30,298 nt of DNA from Desulfobacterales bacterium (GTDB lineage Bacteria > Desulfobacterota > Desulfobacteria > Desulfobacterales > JAHEIW01): positions 2,507,788 through 2,538,085 of the forward strand of contig CP070746.1 in NCBI GenBank assembly GCA_020348305.1, written 5' to 3'. Below are positions 3,743 through 27,273 of the stretch, one piece after another. Below the pieces are notes generated by a model that saw only the letters and a program-made list of their open reading frames with translations, was not told the DNA's origin and searched no databases. The position numbers were made by a program, and so were the translations under genes. Positions within the stretch are counted from its first letter, which is position 1. Every line of letters starts with the position of its first letter.

Positions 3743-6700
3743 TCACGCGGCTGTCTCTGTTTTTTGGGTTGAGGCTGCATCACTTAAAGAATGGAGCAGA
3801 TTGTCCAACATTACATTAAAATGCTTGGCCTCAAAATGGTTGAGCTGGATTGCACGGGCAGGACATTCCGACGCACAGATGCCGCATCCCATGCAATTGG
3901 CGACAGCAATTTCCGCTTTATGATCAGCGTTAACAAACGGAGCACCATAGGGACATGATTGAACACACGTCATGCATGCAATGCACTTGCTCTGGTCAAC
4001 CCTGCAAATCTGAGCACCGACTTCGAGGTGCGTCCTTGAAAGTACTGTAGCGGCACGGGCAGCTGTGGCACGGGCTTGAGAAATGTTTTCATCAATAAAT
4101 TTTGGTGAATGAGCAAGACCGCACACAAAGATACCCTCTTTGGCAAAGTCAATCGGCCGCAGCTTAAGGTGCGCCTCAACATAAAAACCGTCCGCATTTA
4201 ACGGCACCTTGAGCATATCGGCAATCTTTGTGTTATCTTCAGATGCACTTATGCCGGTGCTCAGCACAACCTTATCTGCTTCTATTTCAATAGTCTCAGG
4301 AAAGTCCGGGCTGTCAAACGTAACCCAAAGACCATCTTCTTCTGAAACCACGGGCGGTTTCTCCGCACTGTAACCAATAAAAACAACACCATTTCTTCGG
4401 GCCTCCTGGTAGTATTTCTCGCGGAAACCGTATGTCCTGACGTCCCTGTATAGGACGAAAACATTGGCATCAGGTGCTTTTGTTTTAATGCTCAATGCAT
4501 TCTTGATCGCCATCGAACAGCATATGCGGCTGCAGTAGGCCCGCTCTTTGTTGCGTGAGCCCACACACTGGATCATAACGATATTTTGCCCCGCTCCTGA
4601 AAATCGGTCGGCATGCAGCTGGTCTGCAAGTTCATGCTGTGTCATGACATGATCCGATTTGCCGTAACGGTATTCCCCTGTTTCGGCCCGCCCGGCTCCG
4701 GTGGCAACAATGATGGCCCCACACGGAGTCTCTGTTTGCTGACCCTTTTGCGAAAGCCTGATATTAAACTTACCGATATGCCCGGCAACAGCCTTCACTT
4801 CTGTCTCGAGATGAAGATCAATATTGGGATGATTCTCCACGCGCTGGATGAGATCCGATGTAAAACCGGAAATGTCATCATGCTCAAGCGTCCCATGGAT
4901 GTCTAAAAGATGCCCTCCCAGCGAACCGGACCGTTCAACAAGGTGAACATCAAAACCCTGGTCTGCCAGTGAAAGCGCGGCGGTCATTCCGCTAAGACCA
5001 CCGCCGATCACAAGGCCCGTTTGATTAATTTCAAGGGACTCGCCCTTCAGAGGTGAAAGCAGACGCGCCCTTGCAATTGACATCCTTGCAAGCTCAATGG
5101 CTTTTGAGGTGGCGGATTCCGGTTCAGATGAATGCACCCATGAGCACTGATCCCTGATATTGGCAAGCTCAAACAAATATGGGTTTAAGCCGGCTTCACG
5201 CAACGTTTCCCGGAATAAAGGCTCATGTGTACGGGGGGTACAGGAGGCAACCACGATACGATTCAGCCGGTGTCTGTGAATCGTTTCCTTGATATCTGAC
5301 AGGCTGGTATCAGAACAGGCGAACATTGAGTGTGTGGCCATAACAACATCCGGCTCACCGCAAACAGCTGCGGTCACTTTCTCAACATCAACTACAGAGG
5401 CGATATTCATACCGCAATGGCACACGAACACGCCGATTCGCGATTCTTCATCAGTTACGTCATGTTCGGCAGGATATTGCTTTCTGGCGGTAAGTGTATT
5501 CCTGGCCCCAGCCAGCAATTCCATTGACACGGATGCTGCTGCGCTTGCCTGTGTCACGGTTTCGGGAATATCCTTGGGTTCCTGAAACGCCCCAGCAACA
5601 AACACACCGGGACGTGATGTTTCAAGCGGATACAGCCGGTCTGTTGCGCAGAATCCAAATTCATTCAGCTCGATTCCAAGACGGGAAATGGTTTGCGAGA
5701 CGGAAGTTTTTGGATCAAGGCCCACGGTCAGGACAACGAGGTCAAAATCACGTTCTTCGAATTCGAAGTTGTCATTCACAAAACGGAGTCTGAGATCCTT
5801 TGTCCCGGGCATTTCGACAATACGTGAGGGCATGCTCTTCATGTACTGGATGCCGTCCATGCTTCTGGCACGCTCGTAATACGGATCAAAATCTTTGCCA
5901 AACGCCCGGATGTCCATGTAAAAAATGGCTGCCTCAAGCCCAGTCACGTGTTCCCGGGCAACCATCGCCTGCTTGGTCGTCGCCATGCAGCATATTGATG
6001 AACAGTATTCATTGCCGCATCTGGAGTCACGTGAACCCACGCATTGAATCCAGGCAATTTTGCGGGCCTCACGACCGTCTGACAGGCGCAAAACATGCCC
6101 CTGAAACGGCCCGGCTGCAGACAGCATTCTTTCAAACTGGACACTGGTGATCACGTTTTGATAACGATCGAAACCATACTCTGCCTTTATCTCTGCACGG
6201 AATTCATCGAAGCCCGGTGCAAGTATGACGGAACCGACGTCAAGCTCGATGATTTCTTCCGCCATCTCGTGATCAATTGCATTTTTCTCACAGGCTTCCG
6301 CACACGCCCCGCATTCCGAACACAAAGCGCAGTTCAGGCATCTTTCGGTTTCAGCCAGTGCGTCCTTTTCGGAAAAACATTTCTCGATTTCAAAAAATGC
6401 CTTAACCCGCTCCTGAGCCGGCAGTTCCTTTGCCATGGCACGCGGCTTATTTTCAATATTTTGTATGGAAGGGAGGTTATTTTCGGGAATCGATTTAAGG
6501 GCGTCCTCGAAACGCTGGATTGCCGCACTTTTGCCCTGCAGATAGTAATCTATGGACTCCGCTGCGCGCTTGCCTGCGGCAACCGCAGCGATGACAGTTG
6601 CGGGGCCGGTGACAATATCGCCGCCGGCAAAAATACCCGGCATGTCTGTCACACCATTTTTATCAGCTACAATATTGCACCACGTGTTTACCGGCAATCC

Positions 6701-8257
6701 AGGGGCTGATTCCCACAAAAGCCTATCCGGCTGGCTTCCAACGGCCAGAATCACCATATCCGCTTCTATCTCAAACTCCGATCGGTCTATTGGCACGGGC
6801 CGCTTTCTTCCGGATTCATCGGGTGTATCCAGTTTCATCCGGATGCATTTTACCCTGTGCAGCCGCCCGTTTTGATTACCGATAAATTCAACCGGAGCGG
6901 TAAGGAACCGAAAATAAATCCCCTCCTCCACGGCATGTTCCACTTCCGCCTTCATGGCCGGCATTTCAGCAGCTGTCCGGCGGTAGACAATGCTGACTTT
7001 TTCAGCACCCAAACGTGCTGCGCAACGGGCGGCATCCATGGCAACATCACCGCCGCCGATCACCACCACATGCCCATTTATGGAGGGTTTATCATTCTCG
7101 GCTACGGCTTTGCGGAGAAAATCCAACCCCTGTTCCACACCGTCAAGATTTTCTCCCTTCACGCCAATGGATGTCCCTTTCTGGGTTCCGATACCAACAA
7201 ATACCGCGCTAAAATCCGCTTGCAAATTTTCAATAGTTATGTCTTTTCCGACACGGCAGTTGTAGACAAGGCTAACGCCTTTGCGACGGATCAGCTCAAC
7301 TTCATAATCAAGAATATTTGCCGGGAGCCTGTATTCAGGAATACCCCAGCGCAGCATCCCGCCCGCTGCCGATGATGCTTCAAATATCGTTACCGCATAC
7401 CCGCGATCCGCGAGATCCTGGGCAGCGGTCAAACCGGAGGGTCCGGCACCGATAATGGCAACTTTTCTGGCATCCACCGCCGGTGTTTTTTCCTTTGGGA
7501 GGGCGATGATACCGGCTTCAACCATTTCCATTTCTTTGTCAGCGGCAAACCGTTTCAACTGTCTGATGGCTACCGCAGAATCAAACCGGCTACGGGTACA
7601 TGCACTTTCGCATGGATGCGTGCATACGCGGCCGCATATGGCTGCCAGGGGATTGCGTTCCCTAATCAGTTTGACCGCCTTGACATACTCTTTTTTCTTT
7701 ATCAGCTGGATATATCCCTGGACATTTATGTTTGCCGGACATGCGATTTTACAGGGTGCATGACCCAACTTGAAAATTTCTGGGACATTGGGTATGGCCT
7801 GCACCGAATGCTTGGCGATTGCCTTGCGGGTTCCCAGACTGCGGTTAAAGCGGTCCTTTATATCAACCGGACAGATCTCGGTGCAGTCACCACAATCATT
7901 GCAAACATGCTCGTCAACATATCGCGGATACTTTTTGATGATTGCTGTAAAATTTCCCGGTTGACCCTCAATCTGAATCAATTCAGATAAGGTATGAATC
8001 TCGATATTCAGATTGCGGTCACACTCGACAAGTTTGGGTGAGACAATGCAGGTTGCACAGTCACCGGTTGGAAAAGTCTTGTCCAGCTGGGACATCATGC
8101 CGCCAATGGAAGCTGAACGTTCGATGATGTAGACCTTGAAACCGGAGTTGGCCAAATCAAGCGAGGCCTGAACCCCTGCAATGCCGCCCCCCTGGACAAG
8201 CACTGCGCCTATTTTTTTATTTCCACCTATTCGCATATCATCTGTATTTTCTGACAC
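3743..8257 (-). CDS. hdrL: HdrL: giant HdrA-like flavoprotein with two tandem HdrA modules and an inserted GltD/NfnB-like NAD(P)H:FAD oxidoreductase domain
   Basis: 1504-aa ORF. N-terminal FAD-binding GAVLVQGGGIAGVQASLDLA with a CxxC cluster. Multiple ferredoxin motifs (CNDCGDCTEICP, CLNCALCSECGACAEAC, CIACMTCVQSCPYG, CMGCGICASECP). An internal GltD-like region (CKIACPANINVQGYIQL; KVAIIGAGPSGLTAAQDL; HVVVIGGGDVAMDAARCAARLG). Two HdrA signature stretches (WIQCVGSRDSRCGNEYCSSICC and MIQCVGSRNKERAYCSRICC). The start is an apparent GTG at 8257; an in-frame ATG 7 codons downstream is an alternative. Confidence 0.85.
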   Translation of the reverse strand: MSENTDDMRIGGNKKIGAVLVQGGGIAGVQASLDLANSGFKVYIIERSASIGGMMSQLDKTFPTGDCATCIVSPKLVECDRNLNIEIHTLSELIQIEGQPGNFTAIIKKYPRYVDEHVCNDCGDCTEICPVDIKDRFNRSLGTRKAIAKHSVQAIPNVPEIFKLGHAPCKIACPANINVQGYIQLIKKKEYVKAVKLIRERNPLAAICGRVCTHPCESACTRSRFDSAVAIRQLKRFAADKEMEMVEAGIIALPKEKTPAVDARKVAIIGAGPSGLTAAQDLADRGYAVTIFEASSAAGGMLRWGIPEYRLPANILDYEVELIRRKGVSLVYNCRVGKDITIENLQADFSAVFVGIGTQKGTSIGVKGENLDGVEQGLDFLRKAVAENDKPSINGHVVVIGGGDVAMDAARCAARLGAEKVSIVYRRTAAEMPAMKAEVEHAVEEGIYFRFLTAPVEFIGNQNGRLHRVKCIRMKLDTPDESGRKRPVPIDRSEFEIEADMVILAVGSQPDRLLWESAPGLPVNTWCNIVADKNGVTDMPGIFAGGDIVTGPATVIAAVAAGKRAAESIDYYLQGKSAAIQRFEDALKSIPENNLPSIQNIENKPRAMAKELPAQERVKAFFEIEKCFSEKDALAETERCLNCALCSECGACAEACEKNAIDHEMAEEIIELDVGSVILAPGFDEFRAEIKAEYGFDRYQNVITSVQFERMLSAAGPFQGHVLRLSDGREARKIAWIQCVGSRDSRCGNEYCSSICCMATTKQAMVAREHVTGLEAAIFYMDIRAFGKDFDPYYERARSMDGIQYMKSMPSRIVEMPGTKDLRLRFVNDNFEFEERDFDLVVLTVGLDPKTSVSQTISRLGIELNEFGFCATDRLYPLETSRPGVFVAGAFQEPKDIPETVTQASAAASVSMELLAGARNTLTARKQYPAEHDVTDEESRIGVFVCHCGMNIASVVDVEKVTAAVCGEPDVVMATHSMFACSDTSLSDIKETIHRHRLNRIVVASCTPRTHEPLFRETLREAGLNPYLFELANIRDQCSWVHSSEPESATSKAIELARMSIARARLLSPLKGESLEINQTGLVIGGGLSGMTAALSLADQGFDVHLVERSGSLGGHLLDIHGTLEHDDISGFTSDLIQRVENHPNIDLHLETEVKAVAGHIGKFNIRLSQKGQQTETPCGAIIVATGAGRAETGEYRYGKSDHVMTQHELADQLHADRFSGAGQNIVMIQCVGSRNKERAYCSRICCSMAIKNALSIKTKAPDANVFVLYRDVRTYGFREKYYQEARRNGVVFIGYSAEKPPVVSEEDGLWVTFDSPDFPETIEIEADKVVLSTGISASEDNTKIADMLKVPLNADGFYVEAHLKLRPIDFAKEGIFVCGLAHSPKFIDENISQARATAARAATVLSRTHLEVGAQICRVDQSKCIACMTCVQSCPYGAPFVNADHKAEIAVANCMGCGICASECPARAIQLNHFEAKHFNVMLDNLLHSLSDAASTQKTETAA

Positions 8258-8285
8258 CTGACACCTGGTAACCTGAAACCTCTGA
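8251..8285. repeat. About 34-bp motif CTGACACCTGACACC..CTGAAACCT (copy A, overlapping the hdrL start codon)
   Basis: CTGACACCTGACACCTGGTAACCTGAAACCTCTGA has a tandem GGTGTCAG x2 on the coding strand. It is about 76% identical to copy B at 3661-3694. Confidence 0.45.
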
Positions 8286-9228: not shown

Positions 9229-9239
9229 TTCCGGATTCC

Positions 9240-9794
9240 TTATTTATGGCTGACGCTGTCGAAAATTCTTTTGACAGTCTTTTTATCTGCCCCCCGGGGT
9301 GGCAAAATAGCGATTTTCCGCTTTTTCAGCATGGATGGAAACTTATCCATGTCATTCATAAACGTTAACGTACCCATTTTATAAGCGGCAATCATGACAA
9401 GATCATATGTACGGCCAAACATGTTCACCGTCTTTAAAAAAGCCCGGTTAAAAAGCGGAATGTCGCCTTTTGGTTTTGCCGCTTGCCTTTTTACTGCAAG
9501 AACCCGCAAGGCATCCATCACCGATGCCATGTCAATGCCCATCGGGCAACGTGCAAAACATGTCTCACATGAGGAACAGATCCATATGATATCACTGCTT
9601 AAGATTTCGTCTCCGGCCCCCAGCTGCAGTCGCCTAATAATTTCAGAAGGTGGGGATTTTGTATGCCCGGATACCGGACAGCCGCAGGAACATTTTTTAC
9701 ATTGATAACATTCGCTGAGATCAACGCCTGCCAGCTCTTCAACAGCACTGATAATATTTTTAACTGCTTTTCCTTTTTTTATCCGAATTGTCAT
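9240..9794 (-). CDS. hdrC: Heterodisulfide reductase subunit C-like (2x[4Fe-4S])
   Basis: 184-aa ORF with CYQCKKCSCGCP and CSSCETCFARCP ferredoxin-type motifs. There is a 34-bp gap to the upstream ORF and an 11-bp gap to hdrB. Confidence 0.8.
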   Translation of the reverse strand: MTIRIKKGKAVKNIISAVEELAGVDLSECYQCKKCSCGCPVSGHTKSPPSEIIRRLQLGAGDEILSSDIIWICSSCETCFARCPMGIDMASVMDALRVLAVKRQAAKPKGDIPLFNRAFLKTVNMFGRTYDLVMIAAYKMGTLTFMNDMDKFPSMLKKRKIAILPPRGADKKTVKRIFDSVSHK

Positions 9795-9828
9795 AGCGGT
9801 TTGGTTACCCTCTTATTCCACTTTCGAA

Positions 9829-13622: not shown

Positions 13623-13967
13623 ATGAAATTGGTCGTAGCGATGATTCAGCCCCATAAATTGACTGATGTCAAGCAGGCATTATTTGACGAAGAGGTCTAT
13701 GCCATGACGGTCAGCAATGCCTTGGGATGTGGCAGCACGATGGGGTATATGGAAACCTACAGAGGTGTGAGGCAAGAAGTAAATCTTCTGAAAAAAGTGC
13801 GACTTGAAATTGCCGTCAATGATGATTTCGTTGAACGCATCATTGAGGCAATTATAAAAGGCGCACGAACGGGTAACATGGGAGAATGCCATATCCCAAA
13901 TTGCAAGAGAAAACCTCGAAGGGAGTTTGAGCGGAGTTTTGGCCACATTATCGCCGGAAGAAGCTAA
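13623..13967 (+). pseudogene. P-II (GlnB-like) signal-transduction protein, C-terminally truncated and running out of frame into a flotillin fragment
   Basis: The first roughly 85 aa align with P-II ([20 protein letters not shown]...TYRG...[30 protein letters not shown]). After TG the canonical B-loop/C-terminus (GDGKIFV...RIRTGE) is replaced by [26 protein letters not shown], which is the flotillin reading frame read out of frame. A GGAGG RBS and a sigma-54 promoter lie upstream. Confidence 0.6.
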
Positions 13968-14784
13968 CAGTAATCGGTTGGAGTTTGCCGAAAAAATCGT
14001 ACAACAGACCAGAGGTGATCTCGGTCGCCTGGGTTTAGTGCTGGATACGTTTAAAATCAAACATCTCTCTGATAATGAAGGCTATCTGGATGCCATCGGT
14101 CGCAAGAAAAATGCTGAAGTCAGAAAGGATGTCGAAATCGCGGAAACCAATGCGCAAGCTGAATCAAGACAAGTGTCCGCCGAGGCCAAGCGTATCGGAA
14201 ATGTGGCCGAAGCGGAGGCCAACGTAACCATTGTCGAAGCCGAAAACAAGCTACGGATAAAAAAAGCGGACCTGGATGCCGAAGCCCAACGCATAGAAGC
14301 CAAAGCAAAGGTTGCCGGCAACATCGCCAGGGTCGAAGAAGAACAGAAACTGGAAACCCAAAGAGTTGCCTTGAATCAGAGTAAGTATGAGGCTGACGTC
14401 GTGGTGCCGGCTCGGGCAGAAAAAGAAGCCATGGAATTGAAAGCCATTGGCGACGCATCCACTATCGTAGAAAACGGCAAAGCGACAGCAGAAGCAGTGA
14501 ATCTGATGCGTCAGGAATGGGAAAAAGAAGATACCCGGGAGCTTTTCTTAATCCAGCAACTTCCGGATATCCTCGATAAAGTCACCAGTGTGGTTTCCGA
14601 AAATCTTGCCATCGAAAAGGTTACGATACTGGACAGCGGCAACGGGCAGGGCATGCCCACCTATGTCAAAGGCATTGCCGGTTCTATCGTTGCTATTTTC
14701 GAGCAGATTAAAAACGCCACCGGCCTGGATGTACCTGAAATCCTGAGAGCCAAAGGAAAATCCACGGCTGAAATTACCGGATAG
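13858..14784 (+). pseudogene. Flotillin (FloT/YuaG-like SPFH family) lacking about the N-terminal 130 aa (TM segment plus first half of the SPFH domain)
   Basis: Frame 1 is open from 13858. The translation ...[83 protein letters not shown]... aligns with the middle of B. subtilis FloT (EAREVLEGHLRSILGSMTVEEIY...[37 protein letters not shown]). It is followed by an EA-rich coiled-coil and a C-terminal ...ILDSGNGQG... tail. There is no ATG; the track used TTG at 13927. Confidence 0.65.
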
Positions 14785-14798
14785 AAAGGGAATCGAAC

Positions 14799-16130
14799 AT
14801 GCTGAAGCTGAAATCAAAAAAGGATGTCCTAAAAGTTGTTAAGGACCAGGATGTAAGTTTTATTCAAATCTGGTTCACGGATATTTTGGGAATTTTAAAA
14901 TCATTTGCCATCACGCCTTCTGAACTGGAGGGTGCTCTCACCGAAGGCATGGGATTTGACGGCTCTTCGATTGAAGGGTTTGCCCGCATCGAAGAAAGTG
15001 ACATGATCGCCATGCCGGATCCTACGACATTTCAGTTTCTACCCTGGCGCCCCAAGGATCGCCCGGTGGCCCGCATGTTCTGCGATATTCTGACACCGGA
15101 TGGCTCCCACTATGCCGGTGATCCACGCTATGTATTTAAGCGGGCGCTTCAAAAGGCGGCTGATAAAGGCTACAAATTTTTCATCGGACCTGAACTGGAA
15201 TTTTTCTATTTTGAAAGCAGTGAAAATCCAAAATTTATTGATATGGGAGGCTATTTTGATTCACGACCGCTTGATCTGGCCAGTGACTTGCGCAGAGACA
15301 CGATATTTATGCTCCAGCGCATGGGGATCCAGGTTGAATACAGCCACCATGAGGTGGCACCCAGCCAGCATGAAATCGATTTGCGATTTGATGAAGGTCT
15401 TAAAATGGCGGATAAGACCATGACCTATCGCGTGGTTGTCAAAGAGGTTGCCCGCAAACAAGGCGTCTATGCCACCTTTATGCCCAAGCCCATCTTCGGA
15501 GAAAACGGCAGTGGCATGCATGTTCACCAATCGCTTTTTCGCGGTGATATGAACGCCTTTTATGATCCATCAGATAAATACCATTTATCCGAAATGGCCA
15601 AATCCTATATTGCCGGCATCATGCGACACGCGCGGGAAATTGTCGGGGTTACCAATCAATGGGTGAACTCTTACAAGCGTCTGGTGCCAGGCTATGAAGC
15701 GCCCGTATATATCTCCTGGGCGCGGCGCAACCGCTCGACAATGATACGGGTACCCATGTACAAGCCCGGCAAGGAAGTTGCCACTCGCATTGAGTTTCGT
15801 TCACCGGATCCGGCCTGCAATCCTTATCTGGCTTTTGCAGTTATGCTGATGGCCGGTTTAAAAGGAGTTGAACAGAACTACGCGCTGCCGGATCCGATCG
15901 AAGAGGATATTTACGAGATGGATGAAGCGGCAAGGGAAAAGGCTGGCATTGTTTCGTTGCCGGGAAGTCTTTTTGAAGCCATTCAGGAGCTGGAACAAAG
16001 CGAGGTGGTTCGAGAAACCCTTGGGGACCACATCTTCCAGCAATTCATTGCCAACAAGAAAATCGAATGGAACCGCTTCCGAACGCACGTCAGCAGGTAC
16101 GAGATCGAAAACTATCTTCCCAAGCTTTAA
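14799..16130 (+). CDS. glnA: Glutamine synthetase type I-alpha (443 aa)
   Basis: Canonical GS motifs: [51 protein letters not shown]...EFRSPDPACNPYLAF. It has no adenylylation-loop insertion. Confidence 0.9.
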   Translation: MLKLKSKKDVLKVVKDQDVSFIQIWFTDILGILKSFAITPSELEGALTEGMGFDGSSIEGFARIEESDMIAMPDPTTFQFLPWRPKDRPVARMFCDILTPDGSHYAGDPRYVFKRALQKAADKGYKFFIGPELEFFYFESSENPKFIDMGGYFDSRPLDLASDLRRDTIFMLQRMGIQVEYSHHEVAPSQHEIDLRFDEGLKMADKTMTYRVVVKEVARKQGVYATFMPKPIFGENGSGMHVHQSLFRGDMNAFYDPSDKYHLSEMAKSYIAGIMRHAREIVGVTNQWVNSYKRLVPGYEAPVYISWARRNRSTMIRVPMYKPGKEVATRIEFRSPDPACNPYLAFAVMLMAGLKGVEQNYALPDPIEEDIYEMDEAAREKAGIVSLPGSLFEAIQELEQSEVVRETLGDHIFQQFIANKKIEWNRFRTHVSRYEIENYLPKL

Positions 16131-16343
16131 AAAGGAGACGATATCACTGGCCTTGGAATTATTCGCCCAGAATAAATTCTCGCCGGGCACTACCGGCGAC
16201 GGCCTTTTCTTCGATTGATATAAAGTGATATTTTCATGGGCGTCCATTTCGTATCTCTCGTGTTTTTCTTATTAAAATCAATCTATCGGATAATTTCGTT
16301 GCTTTTTTTAGGAAAACTTTTTAGGAGTGACATTTCATATTGA

Positions 16344-16712
<369 letters not shown>

Positions 16713-16769
16713 AATATAAAACATTTAGATACTTTTTCAAGAAAAGAAAATAATAGGGAGGAAAAACGT

Positions 16770-18182
16770 ATGACACCCAAAGAAGTCTTAGATATGGCTA
16801 AGGAAAACGGAGCCAAGGTGGTTGACTTGCGCTTTATGGATTTTCCGGGCGTCTGGCAGCACTTTAGTGTGCCGATCAACGAATTGGATGAATCGAGTTT
16901 TGAAGATGGGTATGGGTTTGACGGTTCCAGTATTCGTGGCTGGCAGCCGATTCACGCCAGCGATATGCTGGTAGTCCCCGATGCGGATACCGCCAAAATG
17001 GACCCATTTTATGAAGCGCCAACGCTGGTGTTAATCGGCAACATCGTTGATCCGGTAACCCGGGAGCCTTACACCCGGGACCCGAGAAATATTGCTCAAA
17101 AAGCCGAAGCCTATCTAAAAAGCACGGGTATTGGTGATATCGCATATTTCGGCCCTGAGCCCGAATTTTTCATCTTTGACGACATTCGCTTTGAGTCCAC
17201 CCGGTTTGGCGCCTTTTATGAAATTGACTCCATTGAAGGGGTCTGGAACTCCGGTCGTGAGGAAATGCCCAACCTGGGCTATAAACCGCGACACAAAGAA
17301 GGATATTTCCCGGTTCCACCCATGGACAAGTTTCAGGATCTGAGAACGGAGATGGTTTTGACCTTGGAAAATCTGGGGATCGCAACCGAAGCCCAGCATC
17401 ATGAAGTCGCCACCGCCGGCCAGGCAGAAATCGATATGCGTTTTATGCCGCTGCTCCAGATGGCCGATCAACTCATGTGGTTCAAATATGTGCTTAAAAA
17501 TGTCGCCTATCGCAATAACCATACAGTGACCTTCATGCCCAAACCGATTTTCGAAGACAACGGAACCGGCATGCACACCCATATCAGCATTTGGAAAGAA
17601 GACCAGCCGCTGTTTGCCGGCGATAAATATGCCGGTCTTTCCCAGGAGGCATTGTATGCCATCGGCGGCATTTTAACCCACTGCAAGGCGCTATGCGCCT
17701 TTACCAACCCGACCACCAATTCCTATAAACGATTGGTGCCGGGTTTTGAAGCACCGGTGAACTTGGCCTACTCCAGCCGCAACCGCAGTGCGGCGATTCG
17801 AATCCCAATGTATTCCCCGTCACCGAAAACAAAACGCATTGAGTTCCGCACCCCGGATCCTTCCTGCAACGGCTATTTAGCATTTTCAGCCATGCTGATG
17901 GCGGTCATCGATGGTATCCGGAACAAGATCGATCCCGGCGATCCCCTGGATAAAAACATTTACAACCTGCCGCCCGAAGAACTGGCTGAAATTCCATCGG
18001 CGCCCGGTTCCTTGGAAGAGGCGCTGGCCTCTTTAAAAGATGACCAGGAATTCCTTTTAAAAGGCGATGTCTTTACCTCGGATGCCATCGATATGTGGAT
18101 CGAATACAAAATCGAAAATGAGGTCAACGACGTCAAATTGCGACCCCACCCGCATGAGTTCTTTCTGTATTTTGATATTTAA
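16770..18182 (+). CDS. glnA: Glutamine synthetase type I-beta (470 aa) with adenylylation-site motif
   Basis: GS motifs [65 protein letters not shown], plus a NIYNLPPEE adenylylation-type Tyr segment. The RBS is GGGAGG. Confidence 0.9.
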
Positions 18183-18241: not shown

Positions 18242-19307
18242 GGGACGTTGTTGACTGAATTGACTTAGTTTCTCGCCCGTTTTATGATCTTTGATATGGC
18301 CGAGGTGGAAACGCCCAGTCGCCGAGCAACTTCGGCTAAAGCAACCCCTTGGTTCTTTACCAACCCAATCGCAATCCGAGCTCGAATCCCTGATACCTCT
18401 TTGCGCCGGCTGCCGGATCTTAATTCTTCAATTGATACTTTTCCATTTTTGCACAATTTGGCTATCAATTCATCAATTTTTTGATGATGCTCCTTCACCG
18501 GCAGTTGATATTTGATTTGGCTTTCAGCTTCTTTTATGACCCGCTTGACAAATTCACCACTGCCTAAAATCCGCTCATCACTCAACTCGCGATCTGCTGA
18601 GCGGCGCAACGCTTTCACCGCCGACCAACCACCCAAGGACCGTATTAATCCCCCACCAACAAGGTCCGGGCGACGCCCTTCATTTATTCCCTTTTGAACA
18701 TATTTGCGATAAGCTTTTTTAGCCTCGGCCTGCTTGGGCCCAAACCATTTCAATACATAGTCTCGATTCTGCCAGTCATTTTTAACGCGACCCATTAAAA
18801 CGCTGTGACCACACCAGCGGTAGCGGTCTAATTGTGCTAAAGTTTTAACTAATTTAGCCCGCAAAGGATTTAAATGGATATATCGTACCAATTCTTTAAA
18901 ATAGGCATCTTCTTCACAGATAATCGACTTATAGCGGTTTTGAAATAAATGACCCCAGCGTCGATGACGCCGATTGTAAAAAATCGCATAGCCCGTCAGC
19001 AACCGTCGCATAAATCCCGAAAGCCCATACTCAGAGCTGCGTAAAAGAATGTGCGCATGATTGCTCATCAGTGCCCAGGCATATATGGCGGTTTTGGTAC
19101 CTACGGCAAGCTTTGCCAAGCGCCTTACAAAATCTTTTCGATCCGTCACATCATTGACAATTTTGCCTCTTTCTATTCCTCGTACCATCACATGATGCAA
19201 TGTTCCAGGGGCATCCAATCTGGCTCGCCGCGGCATCTTCCCCCTCCTCCTTTAAAATTCTAACCATTTGCATAACATAAATTAGTCAACTCAGTCAACA
19301 ACGTCCC
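18242..19307 (-). mobile_element. Compact IS-like/REPtron-like element: Y1 transposase gene bracketed by about 26-bp imperfect inverted repeats
   Basis: Left repeat 18242-18268 is GGGACGTTGTTGACTGAATTGACTTAG. The reverse complement of 19282-19307 is GGGACGTTGTTGACTGAGTTGACTAA (24/26 identical). Each repeat contains a tandem TTGACT-N3-TTGACT. The left repeat overlaps the transposase stop codon. Confidence 0.55.
18265..19236 (-). CDS. Y1 HUH transposase (IS200-like/RAYT-like) with C-terminal HTH (DnaA-C-like) domain
   Basis: 323-aa ORF with a HUH motif (ALMSNHAHILL) and a catalytic Tyr context (GHLFQNRYKS), typical of the IS200/IS605 TnpA and REP-associated tyrosine transposase superfamily. 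The C-terminal ...LVKNQGVALAEVARRLGVSTSAISKIIKRA is an HTH. Confidence 0.75.
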   Translation of the reverse strand: MPRRARLDAPGTLHHVMVRGIERGKIVNDVTDRKDFVRRLAKLAVGTKTAIYAWALMSNHAHILLRSSEYGLSGFMRRLLTGYAIFYNRRHRRWGHLFQNRYKSIICEEDAYFKELVRYIHLNPLRAKLVKTLAQLDRYRWCGHSVLMGRVKNDWQNRDYVLKWFGPKQAEAKKAYRKYVQKGINEGRRPDLVGGGLIRSLGGWSAVKALRRSADRELSDERILGSGEFVKRVIKEAESQIKYQLPVKEHHQKIDELIAKLCKNGKVSIEELRSGSRRKEVSGIRARIAIGLVKNQGVALAEVARRLGVSTSAISKIIKRARN

Positions 19308-19450: not shown

Positions 19451-19546
19451 CCCTGTCAAAACACTCTGATCACATAGCTGTGATCTTTGCAGTTTTATGG
19501 GGTCATTCCAACCTGCCCTTTAATGTGCGACCCTTATTTTTCGTTC

Positions 19547-20169: not shown

Positions 20170-23100
20170 CTAGGGATTATGAAAAGCTGAAAATATCTTC
20201 GCTGCAAACTTCTTAGCTTGCCACTTAAACTTTTTCCATTTCGACCACTTGTCATAATCATTTGGCTCTTTCATAAAATCTGGATCATTAGGATCATTTG
20301 AGGGATAACTCCAACCAGGCATTCCTGGTGCATCCCATAAGGGACCATATTCATCTCCCATTCCTCTAGATTCATATGCTGGGCAGGCACTACTGTCCTC
20401 ACCACGAGCCATCAAGATATCGAATAGAATATCTTCAGCCTCATCCTCACTGGGGATATAAGGAATATCAGGTAAATTTACGTCAGGAAGATCAGCACCA
20501 GTTGCGTACCCTAAAGCTCCTATAAGTAGCGGTGCACCATATAAAAATGCTCGAAGAGCAGCCTGTCCTCCAAAAAGCCCTCTTGGATCAACCGCATTAA
20601 TTGGATCATTTAAACAATACCCATAAAGATCCGTATCACCTCCAGCAAAAAAAATAGGATCTTTGGCGGTCCATCGCCCTGTGTCGGGATCATAGTCGCG
20701 GAAACCAAACCTAACTAGGCCTGTATCCCGGTCGTCAAGCCCTCCTGCAAATCCAAAAGGCACCTCAATTGTCGGATTGGTATCATTTATTATATTGCCA
20801 AATGAATCATACTCAATTAATTCTACCACATTGCCGGAAGCATCTGCAACAACCCGCAACGAGCCCACCTGGTCATAAGTAAGAAAATAGGTTGTCCCAC
20901 CGCTTTTCATAGCCACCGGCATGCGATCATCAGCATACTCGAAGCGCATCAGTAGATTATTAGAACCATCATAGACGGCCAGCAGACGCGTTAGACCCTC
21001 CCACAGGTATTTCTCGACAACAACTCCATCTACCTTCTTGGCGATTCGTCTTCCCAGTGGATCATGGAGATATTCGATAACGCGACCATCGGACAAATCA
21101 ACGCTTAGTAGCTCTCCACGAGAAGAATATTTATAGTTGGTCACGTCATCTCCATCTTTCTTAGTAGTTAAAAAGCCGTCTAGATTATAAGAATAGCTCA
21201 TAGATCCAGCCGATAAGAGATGATCCCCAGCCGAATAACTAAAGCTCCTTACAGAAAATCCTCTCAGCGTGTTTGTTTCAGAGATTCGTGTTCCACTGAG
21301 ATCATAGCCATACGCTTCAACTAAATTACCGTCTTTGGTTACAGTCAAGAGTCTTCCCATGGAGTCATATGTATAAGCATAATTTGTGGTAACACTACCA
21401 ACCGTCTCGGTTTTGTTTATGATTCTTCCGTTATCATCGCGGGTTAATATCCACGTGGTTACATTTTGGCTACCAACCGTAAAGTTCTGCCCTTCCACCT
21501 CACCGTAACCATTGAATGCGCGAGAAAGACTCAACGCACCGCCGGTAACCGCTTCAGGCAATCCATTCTGAGTATTACGAGAAATTGAATAGGAACCTGC
21601 AGCGGTTAATAGCCCGTCATTATCATAATCATAACTAACGGTGCCTCCCGCATAGGTAAAACTGGAAACATCAAAGTCGTTATTGTAGGTGTAATTTAAT
21701 GATTGATTCAACGTGCCGCTCAACATCTCCAGTGTGACCAGCTTTCCATCATAGCCGTAAGTAATTGATTCGGTGTCTTTTGTGATTGATTCAACTTTTG
21801 TTCCACACAGATAGGTAAAATCAATGTTGCCTTCCGGTGTCTGAATTTGAGAAAGTCTAGTCTTGTCCCAGATGTTGAATATCTGTTTGCCGGAAGGGAA
21901 GTTTGTCTGGATCAAACGCCTGTCCTTATCATACACATAACTGTAACTCCCGCTCAATGGCGTCGTATAAGCGCGATATAGATTGACGCTGTTAAATCCA
22001 AAACCGTGGTTGATATCCACCGGATTAGTCAACACCGTCATATTGCCGTTTTTGTCATAAGTAAATCCCACATAGCCATCGTCCGGGCGGCTTATCCCGG
22101 TTATCCGCCCAACCGGATCATAGCTGTAAGTTGTGGTGTAATTCTCTGGATTGGTGATGGATTCAGGAAATCCCTGTGCATTATAAGCAAATGTGGTTTG
22201 CCTGGCATTGGTGCTGATGGAGGTCAACCTTCCCCTTGAATCGTAGCCATATGCTGTGGAATGAAGGCCAGGCACGCTAACACTTTCGACTAGCAAAGTA
22301 GCAGGATCGTAAAGCGATGTTATTGACCTACCCTCAGGTGAAGTGACTAATTTCCGCGCCTGAAGGGTATTATGTTCAAGTGTCGTGGTTTTGCCATTGA
22401 TCGTTACCGTCTCTGTGATCATGTCCGGTGCTTCATCAGCGTCCGTATCTTGATAAGCCTTATCCCTCAGCGTCACCCATTCTAGTCCTGAAGGGGCACT
22501 TTCTCTCATTTCTTTGACGTATTTATACTTATACTCATAATCCACATCGTATTTGAATTCAAGCTCCATTCCACAGGGCAAGGACTTATTTACGGTTAAT
22601 CCATCTGCTGATTGAGTAAATAATGTTTGAGCTCCCGTGGGATCTGTTATGGTTGAGCTGTAGGCACCGGTGGAATCTGTGCGGTCCAGATAGGAATTAA
22701 GGTTGCCCTCCGCTGTTAGAACCTGGATTAATATATCTCCATTCTCATTTACAATTCTGTTGTAATTCCAATGACCTCCTTCCTCGTCATATACGTCAAT
22801 CAATCCACTGTATTCGAAGCGGTTGCCTTCGGGTTCCACCTTTGCAGTTATCAGACCACCCTCGGCATACTCAAAAGTGTAGTAACTGTCATCGGGATAC
22901 GTGATCCAGGTAAGGTGATTGTTTGCATCAATTGTCAAACTGGTATAAATTCCATCCGGAGAAATGATTGAGGTCGGCGAACCGCTACTATCCCTGGAAA
23001 TGATGGTTTGGTTGCCGAATCGGTCGGTAATCGAAGCCAATCTTCCATCCGAGTCATATCCAAAATCATAAAGGGTTACCCCGGTATCAAGGTCAATGGT

Positions 23101-26100
23101 TGTCTTGTGACGTCCGGAACTTGACGCGATGTAGCCCAGGCCGTTCTCCTCAGCAAATGTTAGATCCCCCTCGCTCGTTATGTTGGCGAAAGCTGAAGGA
23201 GGGGCAACCTTCCGGATACGTCCATTATTATCAGCTATGTAAATGTTGTTTAGGGCATCCACTGCTACGTCCATAATCGTATTGAATAAGGCTTCGGTGG
23301 CGGGTCCACCGTCGCCGCCGTAAGTAAATTCTGAGTCGGATTTGCCGGCCACCGTGCTGATTATTCCTTTCGTATTAACTTTCCTCACTACACGATTCTT
23401 AAAACCTGCTATATATAGATCTCCTGCCGAATCAACGGCTAAACCACGAGGGTTATAAATACTCGCTTCAGTGGCAGGTCCGCCATCTCCACTGTAGCCC
23501 GGAGTGCCGTTTCCAGCTACGGTCGTGATGATACCACTCTTATCCACTTTACGAACGCGGTGGTTGTTGACGTCGGCAATATATAGATTGCCCTCCAAGT
23601 CGACAGCCATGCCTAATGGATATTTAAATTGGGCGTCAGTGGCAAACCCGCCATCTCCGCTATAACCATTATTTCCATTGCCAGCCACAGTGGTTATGAT
23701 GCCGCCTGTGTCCACTTTCCGAATGCACTGATTCCCTGAATCGGAAATATACAGATTTCCCGACGCATCCACAGCAACGTCATACGGATGGTTAAGTGAT
23801 GCTTCGGTAGCAGATCCTCCATCTCCACTATAGGCCGGAGTGGCAGTTCCAGCCACGGTGGTGATAATGCCACTCTTATCCACCTTACGAACGCGGTTGT
23901 TATAGTAATCCGCTATGTAAATATTACCAGAGGCGTCTGCGGTAACCCCGGTTGGATAGTATAGTGACGCTTCATTTGCAGGACCACCATCTCCACTATA
24001 GCCCGGAGTGCTGGTTCCAGCTACGGTAGTGATGATGCCGCCACTATCCACCTTGCGAATACAGTGATTACCGAAATCTGCTATATAAAGGTTGCCTTCA
24101 GCATCCAAATAAACACTGTAGGGTTGTGTAATCTGAGCTTCAGTAGCAGATCCGCCATCACCGCTATAGCCATTCGTTCCGTTTCCGGCCATGGTGTCAA
24201 CGATGGCAGTGTTATTTCTTGTTTGCGTCCCGTCTCCCTTGTGCAAGGTAGATAAGTCCATGAGGTTCACTTGATGATGGGCGGACAATGTCCAGCCCTC
24301 GGCGATAACACCACCTCCTTGAGCGGAAATAGGAGGTATTGTTATATCAACATCGTTTCGCTTCCATGAAGTTATCTCCATCCTCGCTATAACTGCGGTT
24401 TCATCTCTACCTGCCTGGGCAAATGCTCTGATCAATTCCCGAGGCTCTAAATAGACTATATCGTACACGAAGCCTATTTCCACATGTGCTGTTGTAGAAC
24501 CAATAACACGCCTTCCTAAATGGTCCTTTCCATCCCATCCAAATTCAGCCGACTGGTTTGGAAGGGGGTCTATTATTTGTTCGTAAACACGGCCTGCCAC
24601 CTCGACTCTTGCGATGATCCGTTTCAGACTTTCGGGAACTGTTTCTCCGCTTGCAGGAACCGTGATTCTATAAAGGTAGCCTGGCACTCTGTTAATTGCA
24701 TAATGAAGGGTAAGATCTGTGCCGGGAATGGGGATGTCCTCGTGGAAAACTCTGCTGCGTGCTTCTACAAAAGAGCCAAGTCGTTTTTGGCAATCATCTT
24801 CTTCATTTTTTTGCTCATCAATTGCAACTTCGCCATTTGGATTAGGAGGAATAGAATCTGTTGGCGGGCCAAAAGGCCAGTTGATATCCCAAGGTGTGAA
24901 ATGGGTGATGGCCACTCGCCAGAAGGAAAAACCGGGTGCGTATCTTCCGGGATCATAAAGTCCGGTCACCTCATCGTTAAAAAAACCATTGCCATTGAGA
25001 TCATCCGGCTGATCATCGCCATCTGCGTCCAGAGCGTCTACGCTACCGTCAGCGTCCGTGTCGAGAAGTTTTACCACAACACCATTGTCAGCAGGCACCC
25101 AAACACCTCTATCTCGATCGTAATAACCAACAGGAGCCGCCATGCCCACATCAAAACCCAAGAAATTATCTACCCAGATAATAACAGGCTTTTCAAACCT
25201 TATTCGTTGTGCCCCATCTACGCTGAGTTCCACGCAATAGGTGTATGCGGAGTTAGGCGGCAACTTGGCCGGCATGGACTGCTCGGTGGCGAATTCGGTG
25301 GCACGGGCCGTAATAGTAGTAAGTTCTTGGATGTCATTTCCATTTTCATCCACTAAATAGGCCCGGTTGTCCCCTGTAAATACTATAGAGGCCGAGCGAC
25401 TGCCGAACTCATCAGTCACTGGGGTGCTCTGGTGAGTGACCACCGTGTCCGGATTGCCGTCAAATGTCAGTATGGTGGCAGCCGGATCTTCGGCGATCAT
25501 CTGAATTGTCTCTGGAATCGCAATGTCGTTCCAGGTGACGTAGACCTTCCGCTGGCCCGGGACCAAGCCATCTTTTTGATACACAACGGTCATCGTTGCC
25601 CCACCTTCAACCGGAATGGAAAACCGACCTTCTGCATCGGTGGTGACTGTGCCGTATTCCGGATGACTATGTATGGTTATGGCAACATCTGCTATGGGAG
25701 TTTCTGCTAAATCCTGAACCAAACCGGTGATAACCGAAAACCGTTTTGGATCATATTCTTCAACTGTTGCATCCGGCGGTACAAGATCTTCATACTGTTG
25801 CCCGAAAGATCCCTCAGGTTGGAGCTCGGGATTGCCGGCCACATGAACCGTAACCCTGTCACCGATTGTGCCATAAGGACCACTTGCAGTGATGCTATAG
25901 ACAGTGGTTTGAGTGGGCGATACAGCATACGTACCATTTGCTTGTACGATACCGATGCCGGGCTCGATGAAGCAAAAATCAGCATTGGTGGAATTCCAGG
26001 CAAGGTTAGCTGTCTCTCCAACTGAGATAGTCTTAGGATTCGCAGCGATGCTGACGGTTATGGGCGCCTCGCCGAAACCGCTATTTTCGTCCACCTCGAC

Positions 26101-26949
26101 ACTCGATCCGATCTGGACGTTTTTCCCGATAAACGCGCCCTCGGCAACGCTCCCCTGCTTGATCAAAATGGTGCCGTTGGGTGCATAGATGTTTGCCTTT
26201 AGACTGTTGTTGCAGCCAATTGTTGCCGCTTTAGGGGTGGCTCCCAAGTTGCCCCTGGTGCCGTTGATGCCGTTGACATAGATGCGGATGTCCTTGGCAC
26301 TGATACCTGATTTATCAGCCGGACCGATGACCGCGTTTAGTCCCGGCTCCAGCCGGTTGTTAATAATCAGGTCGGTGGGTGCTTGAAAAAACACCTTTGC
26401 ATTGCGATAGCCCAGATCAAGGTTTTCAAAATGATAGGTACCGCCGGTCAAAATGAGCGTGGCATTTGCTCTCACCAGAATCTCACCGTAAGCACCAGGC
26501 TCCAGCACAAGGGTTTCACCCCGGGGGAGGTCATGATTTTCAGTCCCGGGAGCCGGTGCAGGGAAATCCGGCAAGGATATATCCAGGGGCATTTGTAAGG
26601 GGGTATATTCGTTGCCCCTGATAGTGCCGAGGTTCATCAGCTCATTGTAATGGACATCGTCTACTGAAGCATTTATTTTGATTTTGACAGTGTCTGCATA
26701 GATCGACGTACCATCCGGCATGTATACCTTTTTGCCGATGATTACCTCTGACTGGGGGCCAGGCCATAGACCAAGGCTTGCATTTTTGACACCGATCTTG
26801 CCACTTTTAACCGTAGCACCTTGACGAATCCAGATACTATCTGTGGCAAATACTGAAAATGAAGAGAGGTCGTTGATCGCATGGGAGAATTCTGGAAAGG
26901 AAGGAAAAATTACAAGCACAGCAAGCAGGCAGAAAATCTTTCTTAGCAT
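20170..26949 (-). CDS. Teneurin-like YD-repeat/RHS polymorphic toxin (about 2259 aa from the probable start; the long track ORF begins 30 codons further upstream at 27039)
   Basis: The probable start is the ATG at 26949, preceded by GGAGG 5 nt upstream, giving a signal peptide MLRKIFCLLAVLVIFPSFPEFSHA. Domains in order: a CarbopepD_reg/TTR-like domain (LVQDLAETPIADVAITIHSHPEYGTVTTDAEGRFSIPVEGG); an Asp-rich Ca-binding-like stretch (DTDADGSVDALDADGDDQPDDLNGNG); at least 6 NHL repeats (GYSGDGGxATEA...GNLYIAD..N.RVRKVD...GIITTVAG); many YD/RHS repeats; an RHS core ending in ...NAVDPRGLFGG (DPxGL autoproteolysis motif); then a 131-aa C-terminal domain with no recognisable motif. Confidence 0.9.
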   Translation of the reverse strand: MLRKIFCLLAVLVIFPSFPEFSHAINDLSSFSVFATDSIWIRQGATVKSGKIGVKNASLGLWPGPQSEVIIGKKVYMPDGTSIYADTVKIKINASVDDVHYNELMNLGTIRGNEYTPLQMPLDISLPDFPAPAPGTENHDLPRGETLVLEPGAYGEILVRANATLILTGGTYHFENLDLGYRNAKVFFQAPTDLIINNRLEPGLNAVIGPADKSGISAKDIRIYVNGINGTRGNLGATPKAATIGCNNSLKANIYAPNGTILIKQGSVAEGAFIGKNVQIGSSVEVDENSGFGEAPITVSIAANPKTISVGETANLAWNSTNADFCFIEPGIGIVQANGTYAVSPTQTTVYSITASGPYGTIGDRVTVHVAGNPELQPEGSFGQQYEDLVPPDATVEEYDPKRFSVITGLVQDLAETPIADVAITIHSHPEYGTVTTDAEGRFSIPVEGGATMTVVYQKDGLVPGQRKVYVTWNDIAIPETIQMIAEDPAATILTFDGNPDTVVTHQSTPVTDEFGSRSASIVFTGDNRAYLVDENGNDIQELTTITARATEFATEQSMPAKLPPNSAYTYCVELSVDGAQRIRFEKPVIIWVDNFLGFDVGMAAPVGYYDRDRGVWVPADNGVVVKLLDTDADGSVDALDADGDDQPDDLNGNGFFNDEVTGLYDPGRYAPGFSFWRVAITHFTPWDINWPFGPPTDSIPPNPNGEVAIDEQKNEEDDCQKRLGSFVEARSRVFHEDIPIPGTDLTLHYAINRVPGYLYRITVPASGETVPESLKRIIARVEVAGRVYEQIIDPLPNQSAEFGWDGKDHLGRRVIGSTTAHVEIGFVYDIVYLEPRELIRAFAQAGRDETAVIARMEITSWKRNDVDITIPPISAQGGGVIAEGWTLSAHHQVNLMDLSTLHKGDGTQTRNNTAIVDTMAGNGTNGYSGDGGSATEAQITQPYSVYLDAEGNLYIADFGNHCIRKVDSGGIITTVAGTSTPGYSGDGGPANEASLYYPTGVTADASGNIYIADYYNNRVRKVDKSGIITTVAGTATPAYSGDGGSATEASLNHPYDVAVDASGNLYISDSGNQCIRKVDTGGIITTVAGNGNNGYSGDGGFATDAQFKYPLGMAVDLEGNLYIADVNNHRVRKVDKSGIITTVAGNGTPGYSGDGGPATEASIYNPRGLAVDSAGDLYIAGFKNRVVRKVNTKGIISTVAGKSDSEFTYGGDGGPATEALFNTIMDVAVDALNNIYIADNNGRIRKVAPPSAFANITSEGDLTFAEENGLGYIASSSGRHKTTIDLDTGVTLYDFGYDSDGRLASITDRFGNQTIISRDSSGSPTSIISPDGIYTSLTIDANNHLTWITYPDDSYYTFEYAEGGLITAKVEPEGNRFEYSGLIDVYDEEGGHWNYNRIVNENGDILIQVLTAEGNLNSYLDRTDSTGAYSSTITDPTGAQTLFTQSADGLTVNKSLPCGMELEFKYDVDYEYKYKYVKEMRESAPSGLEWVTLRDKAYQDTDADEAPDMITETVTINGKTTTLEHNTLQARKLVTSPEGRSITSLYDPATLLVESVSVPGLHSTAYGYDSRGRLTSISTNARQTTFAYNAQGFPESITNPENYTTTYSYDPVGRITGISRPDDGYVGFTYDKNGNMTVLTNPVDINHGFGFNSVNLYRAYTTPLSGSYSYVYDKDRRLIQTNFPSGKQIFNIWDKTRLSQIQTPEGNIDFTYLCGTKVESITKDTESITYGYDGKLVTLEMLSGTLNQSLNYTYNNDFDVSSFTYAGGTVSYDYDNDGLLTAAGSYSISRNTQNGLPEAVTGGALSLSRAFNGYGEVEGQNFTVGSQNVTTWILTRDDNGRIINKTETVGSVTTNYAYTYDSMGRLLTVTKDGNLVEAYGYDLSGTRISETNTLRGFSVRSFSYSAGDHLLSAGSMSYSYNLDGFLTTKKDGDDVTNYKYSSRGELLSVDLSDGRVIEYLHDPLGRRIAKKVDGVVVEKYLWEGLTRLLAVYDGSNNLLMRFEYADDRMPVAMKSGGTTYFLTYDQVGSLRVVADASGNVVELIEYDSFGNIINDTNPTIEVPFGFAGGLDDRDTGLVRFGFRDYDPDTGRWTAKDPIFFAGGDTDLYGYCLNDPINAVDPRGLFGGQAALRAFLYGAPLLIGALGYATGADLPDVNLPDIPYIPSEDEAEDILFDILMARGEDSSACPAYESRGMGDEYGPLWDAPGMPGWSYPSNDPNDPDFMKEPNDYDKWSKWKKFKWQAKKFAAKIFSAFHNP

Positions 26950-27232
26950 GATGAACCTCCAGCAACTTTTAATTAACTTTGAACTAATGCGGTATATGAT
27001 GTCAAACAGCCTAAAGAAGAAACAGGGATAAGTTGACATAATGCCAATTGATTTGGGTAGGTTTGGACTGAAAAAATAAAGATCTTTTGGAGTAATTTAA
27101 GAAAGACCTGTCATGACTGTTTGCGATCACAACACCCCCTCCGCGAGACCTTGAAGGGTATTGACAGCATGAACTCCGTAGTTAGCTTTGTTTTAGTTAA
27201 TGGAGCGTTGGATGAACCCTTCCAGCGTCCAT

Positions 27233-27273
27233 AAAAAAAGGGATCTAAATGCAATCAGATCCCTTAATTTTTT
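27233..27273. terminator. Bidirectional rho-independent terminator (mainly terminating the minus-strand sigma-54 activator gene)
   Basis: Stem GGGATCT...AGATCCC (7 bp, 10-nt loop) is flanked by AAAAAAA on one side and TTAATTTTTT on the other. On the minus strand it reads AAGGGATCTGATTGCATTTAGATCCCTTTTTTT. Confidence 0.55.

Follow-up and report, generated by a model that had tools for sequence, protein, structure and literature searches.

In animal nervous systems, teneurins are receptors essential for wiring, and their ancestry leads back to a bacterial toxin. In a 30,298-nt stretch of bacterial DNA (the window; all positions are counted from its first letter), the open reading frame (ORF) listing contains a single long ORF in the minus strand (20170..27039), which a first-pass annotation described as a bacterial protein reproducing the teneurin ectodomain. 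The locus raises the question of what kind of protein this is, how it might act and whether it bears on the origin of teneurins. The ATG at the first ORF position would add 30 residues relative to the ATG at 26949 (Met31), which has GGAGG 7 nt upstream, and the 2259-residue product from 26949 is an exact match to NCBI UCE56101.1 ("hypothetical protein JSV31_11845"), encoded on a 6.97-Mb contig of a Desulfobacterales metagenome-assembled genome (MAG). Because of this GGAGG and the identity with the deposited product, the true start is likely 26949, giving a gene at 20170..26949 (2259 codons plus stop). The ORF is genuine and intact and encodes a bacterial teneurin-like protein (TLP); since the product belongs to a Desulfobacterales MAG, the deltaproteobacterial origin proposed for it holds as well. 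We consider it likely that the protein is a member of the TLP class of Rhs/YD polymorphic toxins, exported, packaged in its own shell and carrying a self-cleaved tip with a tetratricopeptide-repeat (TPR) immunity protein.

Domain architecture and kinship with teneurins

Pfam and NCBIfam searches recover, far above chance, the domain order that had been noted from the sequence: TTR, plug, NHL, YD shell and Rhs core. The teneurin-type TTR domain (aa 399-484, 25498..25755, minus strand, as are all parts of the gene) scores 57.6 bits with TTR_TEN1-4 (cutoff 27), the six-blade NHL propeller (aa 881-1254, with the blades at aa 921-1254; 23188..24309) 164.6 bits with TEN_NHL, the YD-repeat shell (aa 1255-2046, 20812..23187) 137.8 bits with TEN_YD-shell, and the Rhs-associated core (aa 2047-2125, 20575..20811), which contains R2084, D2097 (in DPIFF) and D2121 (in DPRGL), 73 bits with its NCBIfam model; Pfam also reports RHS_repeat. 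What had been described as one intervening plug-like region does include the FN-plug but consists of two units. The first is a TIP-like domain (aa 485-715, 24805..25497), for which neither Pfam nor NCBIfam has a model, and which is colinear with the TIP region of the Bacillus inaquosorum teneurin-like protein (BiTLP; PDB 9PT5 and 9IFO), after the TTR and before the plug, and 74-77% identical to homologues. The second is the FN-plug itself (aa 716-880, 24310..24804), identified by Pfam, BiTLP alignment and PDB search, which holds C720 and a G725|S726 bond (nt 24772-24777). Submitted alone to the PDB, aa 700-880 retrieve nothing other than BiTLP, at 72 bits, and the metazoan teneurins, at 39-55 bits. 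The designation as a full teneurin ectodomain goes too far, since EGF, ABD and Tox-GHH are undetected in the domain search and TIP is additional.

A 398-residue N-terminal region stands ahead of the TTR. It begins with a putative Sec signal peptide of the SPI type (aa 1-24, 26878..26949, MLRKIFCLLAVLVIFPSFPEFSHA|I, judged by eye from the sequence), which has no lipobox, and continues with an N-terminal module (aa 25-320, 25990..26877) defined by Pfam and homologue alignment and an Ig-like module (aa 321-398, 25756..25989) defined by homologue comparison, the copy number of which varies among homologues. The homologues come from a word-indexed search with 382 protein hits at E<=1e-20; the 120 highest-ranking of them, which we examined, share 50-69% identity with the query, most over ~80% of its length and a few over only 47-51%, and all have teneurin-type Pfam domains. 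The N-terminal module, which has a borderline match to DUF7305 (27.0 bits, cutoff 27) and none in NCBIfam or the PDB, is common to only four of the 120 (P0004, P0005, P0085 and P0010).

Kinship was assessed by ranking scores region by region. In a PDB sequence search, 9PT5 and 9IFO are on top (E=0, ~1036 bits) in one colinear alignment of aa 399-2126 covering 1728 residues; metazoan teneurins follow at 250-316 bits, and Rhs proteins from type VI secretion systems (T6SS) reach ~100-110 bits, confined to the shell end and core. The YD shell taken separately scores 297 bits with BiTLP, 97-108 with vertebrate teneurins, 51 with fly Ten-m and 37-88 with Rhs proteins. Against the Rhs core, BiTLP reaches 101 bits; the alignments of teneurins cover just the first 52-56 residues, and those of bacterial Rhs and Tc proteins span the cleavage motif. 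As had been proposed in the first pass, we also predicted the structure and compared folds, using two AlphaFold models, each built on a 38-sequence alignment (aa 399-1270, mean pLDDT 75 and above 90 in the NHL region; aa 1255-2259, mean pLDDT 65.5). Searched against the PDB with Foldseek, both models retrieve 9IFO first, then 13-15 teneurin entries (metazoan teneurins at E-values of 1e-26 to 1e-43), then T6SS Rhs, with Tc last; the exception is the Rhs entry 7q97, which outranks the teneurin 6cmx, all other Rhs and Tc entries ranking below the teneurins. The global confidence of the models is low (pTM 0.47 and 0.40), hence TM-scores to teneurins of only 0.33-0.38, and the fold ranking, in which TLP and teneurins do come first, is consistent with TLP kinship rather than decisive. 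The ranking TLP over teneurins over T6SS Rhs over Tc is the same in sequence and fold searches and supports the suggestion of a teneurin-type superfold rather than an ordinary Rhs or WapA protein.

The shell and core are shared more widely, and the protein might in principle be an ordinary Rhs effector delivered by a T6SS or a Tc (ABC) complex, with its teneurin-like features incidental. T6SS Rhs proteins (RhsA 7Q97, RhsP 8H8A, Tse15 and Tre23) and the TcB/TcC cocoons (4O9X and 4IGL) likewise form a YD-repeat cocoon around a self-cleaved C-terminal toxin, with a DPxGL aspartyl protease core, so that the shell and the cleavage motif fit this explanation too. However, the N-terminal plug differs, and the FN-plug, TTR and NHL domains match only teneurins and TLPs; Pfam detects no PAAR, VgrG or TcA/TcB-type domain in the protein, which offers no TcA interface and is putatively Sec-dependent through its N-terminal signal peptide. 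No T6SS or Tc genes were found within the 30-kb window, which has no TcA-like gene, and Tc structures rank lowest in both sequence and fold searches. Delivery of this kind is therefore very improbable. A functional parallel is offered by the WapA-type YD toxins of Gram-positive bacteria, which are Sec-exported and anchored at the surface and have WapI as immunity protein: they too combine a signal peptide and display at the surface with an Rhs shell, a polymorphic tip and an immunity gene downstream. WapA is not known to have TTR, FN-plug or NHL domains.

Six hallmarks of TLPs are found in UCE56101.1: an FN-plug, a six-blade NHL propeller, a teneurin-type YD shell, the TTR-TIP pair, the Asp/Asp/Arg set of the Rhs core and the G725|S726 site. 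With BiTLP it shares the order TTR-TIP-FN-plug-NHL-YD-shell-Rhs-core, both cleavage sites at equal spacing, a variable tip of ~15 kDa and a small gene directly downstream. It differs from BiTLP in its N-terminal module, which is of another kind and without a lipobox, in its tip, which is unrelated to that of BiTLP and missing from the supplementary sequences of PMC13018210, and in its predicted immunity protein, a TPR protein. Compared with metazoan teneurins (chicken Ten2 6FB3, mouse Ten3 6FAY and fly Ten-m 8FIA), the TTR, FN-plug, six-blade NHL and YD shell are homologous, whereas identity is only ~18-27%. Metazoan teneurins belong to the type II transmembrane proteins, with an intracellular region, EGF repeats, ABD and Tox-GHH, all undetected by Pfam in the bacterial protein, which has an N-terminal signal peptide instead and an extra TIP domain that is absent from higher teneurins; its Rhs cleavage motif is intact, whereas teneurins are uncleaved (PMC5851990).

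All six NHL blades that had been counted in the sequence are present, each with its GDGG anchor, five in exact 56-aa register and then the sixth. They had been called near-identical and taken for products of recent internal duplication, neither of which agrees with the measurements: the blades are 57-71% identical to one another as protein and 60-68% as DNA, identical residues use the same codon in only 29-50% of cases, Tandem Repeats Finder (TRF) detects no repeat in the DNA, and a blade resembles the same-numbered blade of a homologue (0.62) about as much as other-numbered blades (0.615). Because synonymous codons are scrambled in this way, TRF finds no repeat and same-numbered blades are not closer, recent duplication does not account for the blades, and we read their resemblance as a strongly constrained consensus common to the family; the comparisons, together with the finding that only 15 of 122 proteins keep the exact 56-aa register over five blades, suggest either such constraint from the consensus or a shuffling of blades within the family.

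Does such a protein inform the origin of teneurins? Before 2018, a bacterial protein with the teneurin superfold would have been notable; the family is now catalogued, structurally solved and known as a toxin/immunity system. Bacterial TLPs were first reported by Jackson et al. 2018 as widespread proteins with variable C-termini of 100-150 aa and an intact cleavage site (PMC5851990). Raoelijaona et al. 2026 examined 139 genomes with TLPs from six phyla, one of them Thermodesulfobacteriota, and solved the cryo-EM structure of BiTLP. They defined the TIP domain, an FN-plug cut at G723|S724 and an Rhs protease with D2116, D2140 and R2103, and located a ~15-kDa tip inside the shell; their experiments established the toxicity of TLP tips and its neutralisation by genes downstream (PMC13018210). 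TIP is present in 96% of TLPs. The genome list of that study includes Desulfosarcina alkanivorans PL12, whose TLP is 59% identical to UCE56101.1, and other Desulfobacterales; UCE56101.1 itself is not in the list (PMC13018210). The same study places metazoan teneurins next to Paenibacillaceae TLPs, not next to those of Thermodesulfobacteriota (PMC13018210), and UCE56101.1 therefore has no special position in teneurin origin. The evolutionary value first attached to this locus is thus small: the gene is one more member of an already described and structurally solved family. What it adds is a well-preserved Desulfobacterales member, an unannotated tip family with a TPR partner and the evidence of a wide distribution set out below; these additions leave the evolutionary picture unchanged, and the association with a Y1 element described below is the sole point that might open something new.

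Predicted release of the tip and its putative immunity protein

Aligned with BiTLP, C720 and G725|S726 correspond to C719 and G723|S724, and R2084, D2097 and D2121 correspond to R2103, D2116 and D2140, with a D-to-D spacing of 24 residues in both proteins. Among 121 homologues, S726, R2084 and D2097 are each kept in 117, D2121 in 115 and C720 in 99. Judged from these residues, both autoproteolysis sites are intact and the Rhs-core cut is predicted to fall after L2125, at the end of D2121-P-R-G-L2125; the presence and conservation of this motif with R2084 and D2097 bear out the claim of an intact toxin tip.

The polymorphic C-terminal tip behind this site (aa 2126-2259, 20173..20574, minus strand) was characterized by homologue comparison, HMMER and composition. 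It has 134 residues, a mass of 14.9 kDa, which fits the ~15 kDa usual for TLPs, and a pI of 4.4, and it combines a Gly/Ala-rich hydrophobic segment, an acidic middle part whose net charge is -15 and whose one Cys is C2189, the motif GPLWxAPGMPGW, and an amphipathic tail that is rich in Lys and Trp, carries a charge of +6 and ends in FHNP. None of the 120 closest scaffold homologues shares it. HMMER, run exhaustively over 1.84 billion representatives, turned up only 15 relatives, of which 12 start with Rhs-core or PxxxxDPxGL sequence and three are short fragments without it; most are short ends of Rhs-core proteins, and their common pattern is C...GPLWxAPGMPGW...DPxDPDF.K.P....KWSKWKK.KW..KK. 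A relationship of the tip to that of BiTLP or to any solved or annotated domain was rejected for want of a match in the PDB, Pfam or NCBIfam. The tip thus appears to belong to a rare, unannotated family, for which composition weakly favours membrane damage. Pairing of C720 with the tip Cys, as in BiTLP C719-C2216, was also considered; co-occurrence is uninformative here, as nearly all tips have a Cys (87 of 88 homologue tips of 40-300 aa, P0004-P0122, which are unrelated in sequence), whether C720 is present or not (p=0.17). These frequencies are compatible with a general plug-to-tip disulfide like that of BiTLP and do not demonstrate one.

Directly downstream, 14 nt past the TLP stop, begins the gene of a 202-residue TPR protein (UCE56100.1; 19547..20155, minus strand), the predicted cognate immunity protein. 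At the loci of the closest tip subfamily (L001-L004), a TPR orthologue of 49-68% identity is the next gene in four of four cases, 0-32 nt downstream, which makes the immunity candidate named in the first-pass annotation a credible one; at L001 the same pair of tip and TPR gene forms an Rhs-end cassette that stands alone. In a tip subfamily further removed (two loci, L005 and L006), the partner is a different one, conserved between them. In P0004 and P0005, whose scaffolds are nearest to that of UCE56101.1, the tips (117 and 85 aa) bear no relation to its tip, and the small membrane proteins encoded next are unrelated as well. The GC content at third codon positions (GC3) is 0.45-0.53 in the gene body (0.39 in the FN-plug), against 0.30 for the Rhs core and 0.29 for the tip, and the TPR gene has a GC content of 0.32. 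Because the tip is variable, its pairing with the TPR gene is conserved, tips and small genes are unrelated in P0004 and P0005, and GC drops, the tip and immunity gene bear the signatures of a swappable, AT-rich toxin/immunity cassette whose junction with the scaffold is the Rhs core, where the fall in GC3 marks the putative recombination joint. The L005 and L006 partner (L005:4635-5060 and L006:1097-1516; 140 aa, 56% mutual identity, behind tips that end in GGVG) has kept a GHEIDHH (HExxH-like) motif at both loci, an uncommon feature if it is an immunity protein, as presumed.

As a plausible mechanism, the signal peptide would export the protein by the Sec route, and the lineage-variable N-terminal module, together with the Ig-like module, probably keeps it on the cell surface. 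As homology to BiTLP, whose structure is solved, shows, the TTR-TIP-FN-plug-NHL-YD-shell superfold forms a closed cocoon whose N-terminal end is sealed by the FN-plug. The Rhs-core aspartyl protease (R2084, D2097 and D2121), whose motifs are present, is predicted to cut after L2125, and the freed 14.9-kDa domain would stay inside the shell; a second self-cleavage is expected at G725|S726 in the FN-plug, where the motif is likewise present. The C-terminal domain would be the toxic cargo, combining a hydrophobic segment with the +6 amphipathic Lys/Trp-rich helix and no enzyme-like motif, and might damage membranes, as the unrelated BiTLP tip does. The conserved pairing across loci suggests that the TPR protein is the cognate immunity protein, and tip and immunity gene would travel as an exchangeable AT-rich cassette attached to the scaffold at the Rhs core.

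Several observations weigh against this reading in addition to the low model confidence. The FN-plug_TEN1-4 match (aa 768-830) scores 23.7 bits, under the Pfam cutoff of 27.8, and no secretion or delivery genes, T6SS and Tc included, were seen within the 30-kb window. The tip has no match in Pfam, NCBIfam or the PDB, its AlphaFold model (pLDDT <50, three isolated helices only) is unusable for its fold, and its hydrophobic segment is just moderately hydrophobic (Kyte-Doolittle 1.34); since there is neither a domain match nor a reliable model, it is composition alone that suggests membrane damage. The TPR protein could instead be a tip-specific chaperone. For this TLP, moreover, toxicity, cleavage, export and immunity are all inferred.

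Part of this evidence would also suit a protein that serves mainly as a surface adhesin or cell-cell recognition molecule, resembling teneurins in function and not just in fold, with the C-terminal domain as a structural element or membrane anchor and the TPR protein as an assembly factor or chaperone. Adhesin-like and Ig-like modules occur in the N-terminal region, no enzymatic motif is seen in the tip, the TPR protein weakly matches LcrH/SycD-type chaperones (36 bits, far under the cutoff), and a role in cell-cell communication was left open in PMC13018210. However, the autoproteolysis motifs, lost in teneurins, are intact here, the tip is hypervariable on scaffolds that are 61-66% identical, with the downstream gene changing too, which is the signature of toxin/immunity conflict, and at L001 the tip and TPR pair is also met as a stand-alone cassette. 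An adhesin is therefore quite improbable, and we retain the polymorphic toxin.

Within the toxin reading, the tip could be an enzyme or a binder of an intracellular target rather than membrane-acting, a variant that is somewhat unlikely and yet deserves the most weight among the alternatives. The invariant Pro, Gly, Asp and Trp residues in GPLWxAPGMPGW...D...P...W...K could form a binding or active site, and the TPR partner has no clear signal peptide, as expected of a cytoplasmic immunity protein; on the other hand, there is no conserved catalytic set of His, Glu or Cys, save one Cys that is possibly a tether, and the conserved part comprises just ~65 residues ending in the +6 amphipathic helix.

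A Y1 element behind the cassette

Directly after the TPR gene, motif, domain and repeat searches identified a Y1 element (18242..19307, minus strand), consisting of an ORF (18265..19236) for an IS200/RAYT-like HUH protein with a helix-turn-helix (HTH) and of 29-nt inverted repeats (18242-18270 and 19279-19307). The ORF contains the HUH motif and a tyrosine motif, RYIHLNP; the repeats are 90% complementary and occur in only two copies in the window. Because its exact translation is absent from the protein collection searched and the flanking accessions UCE56099 and UCE56100 are consecutive, the ORF appears to be unannotated in the NCBI record. Between the two genes, ~60 nt past the TPR stop, lies a perfect hairpin with a 7-bp stem (GATCACA GCTA TGTGATC, 19468-19485), which might serve as a terminator or as a recognition site of the Y1 enzyme.

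The element recurs in related loci. The P0004 and P0005 TLPs are followed by Y1 orthologues (46-58% identity) in the same position and orientation; in a fourth relative, P0085, DDE transposases take that position instead, and the contig of P0012 ends at the TLP gene. Elements were located at L088:13537-14640 and L090:9025-9864 and also at L094, L095 and L128, with inverted repeats of 29-31 nt; those of the L088 gene share a AGGGACGT core. The Y1 family is very common, with at least 576 matches in the metagenome scan, and among the 27 Y1 loci with at least 1.5 kb of upstream sequence, an Rhs core lies 0.9-2.3 kb upstream on the same strand in six (~22%); L095, which has a shorter flank, also has an Rhs core upstream. 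L094, L095 and L128 are of TLP type, no two of them having the same tip or the same small gene, and four further loci are ordinary Rhs; the other Y1 loci have unrelated contexts. The layout of Rhs core, cassette and Y1 is thus found at no fewer than six loci of TLP type, which between them carry six different cassettes, plus the four ordinary Rhs loci.

This association may reflect a role in cassette exchange, an insertion preference or hitch-hiking. The boldest reading, in which the Y1 enzyme promotes or targets exchange of a cassette bounded by the Rhs core on the left and Y1 on the right, and in which, as a separate matter, the tip founds a new family of non-enzymatic, membrane-acting toxins neutralised by a TPR protein, is in our view improbable; if the enzyme did promote or target exchange, polymorphic toxins would have in it a device dedicated to their diversification.

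Neighbouring genes and distribution of the family

The block of TLP, TPR and Y1 genes sits between glnA and a gene for a GAF/sigma-54 activator, which lies upstream on the same strand and has its own terminator at 27238-27265. Prompted by this activator, we looked for a sigma-54 promoter of the TLP gene in 26950-27240, and none is visible by eye; a consensus scan of the same interval likewise gave no minus-strand sigma-70 promoter. Synteny with L088, the locus of the closest homologue, was rejected, as the sigma-54 activators of the two loci are not orthologues (36% identity, in the AAA+ domain only). The rest of the window (744-12540 and 13623-18182) is housekeeping: a MetF/MetV, MvhD and HdrA-like cluster that includes a 1504-aa fusion at 3743..8257, HdrBC-like genes, glutamate-synthase-like genes (one of 903 aa), a gene for an Lrp regulator, and two genes each for P-II and glutamine synthetase.

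The distribution of the family was assessed by scanning the region from TTR to NHL against one genome per GTDB species. In these species-representative genomes, the region is encoded at no fewer than 224 loci, mostly in Desulfobacterales and Syntrophales. The scan also matched Ca. Electronema (cable bacteria), Pelotomaculum, Myxococcota, Acidobacteria and Actinomycetota, as well as Ca. Scalindua and other Planctomycetes, Omnitrophota, Nitrospirae, Spirochaetia, and Sulfurimonas and other Campylobacterota. TLPs are plentiful in metagenomes of sulfate reducers and reach more phyla than were reported in the published isolate survey: Planctomycetes including Ca. Scalindua, Omnitrophota, Nitrospirae, Spirochaetia and Campylobacterota including Sulfurimonas are groups beyond the six phyla of 2026.

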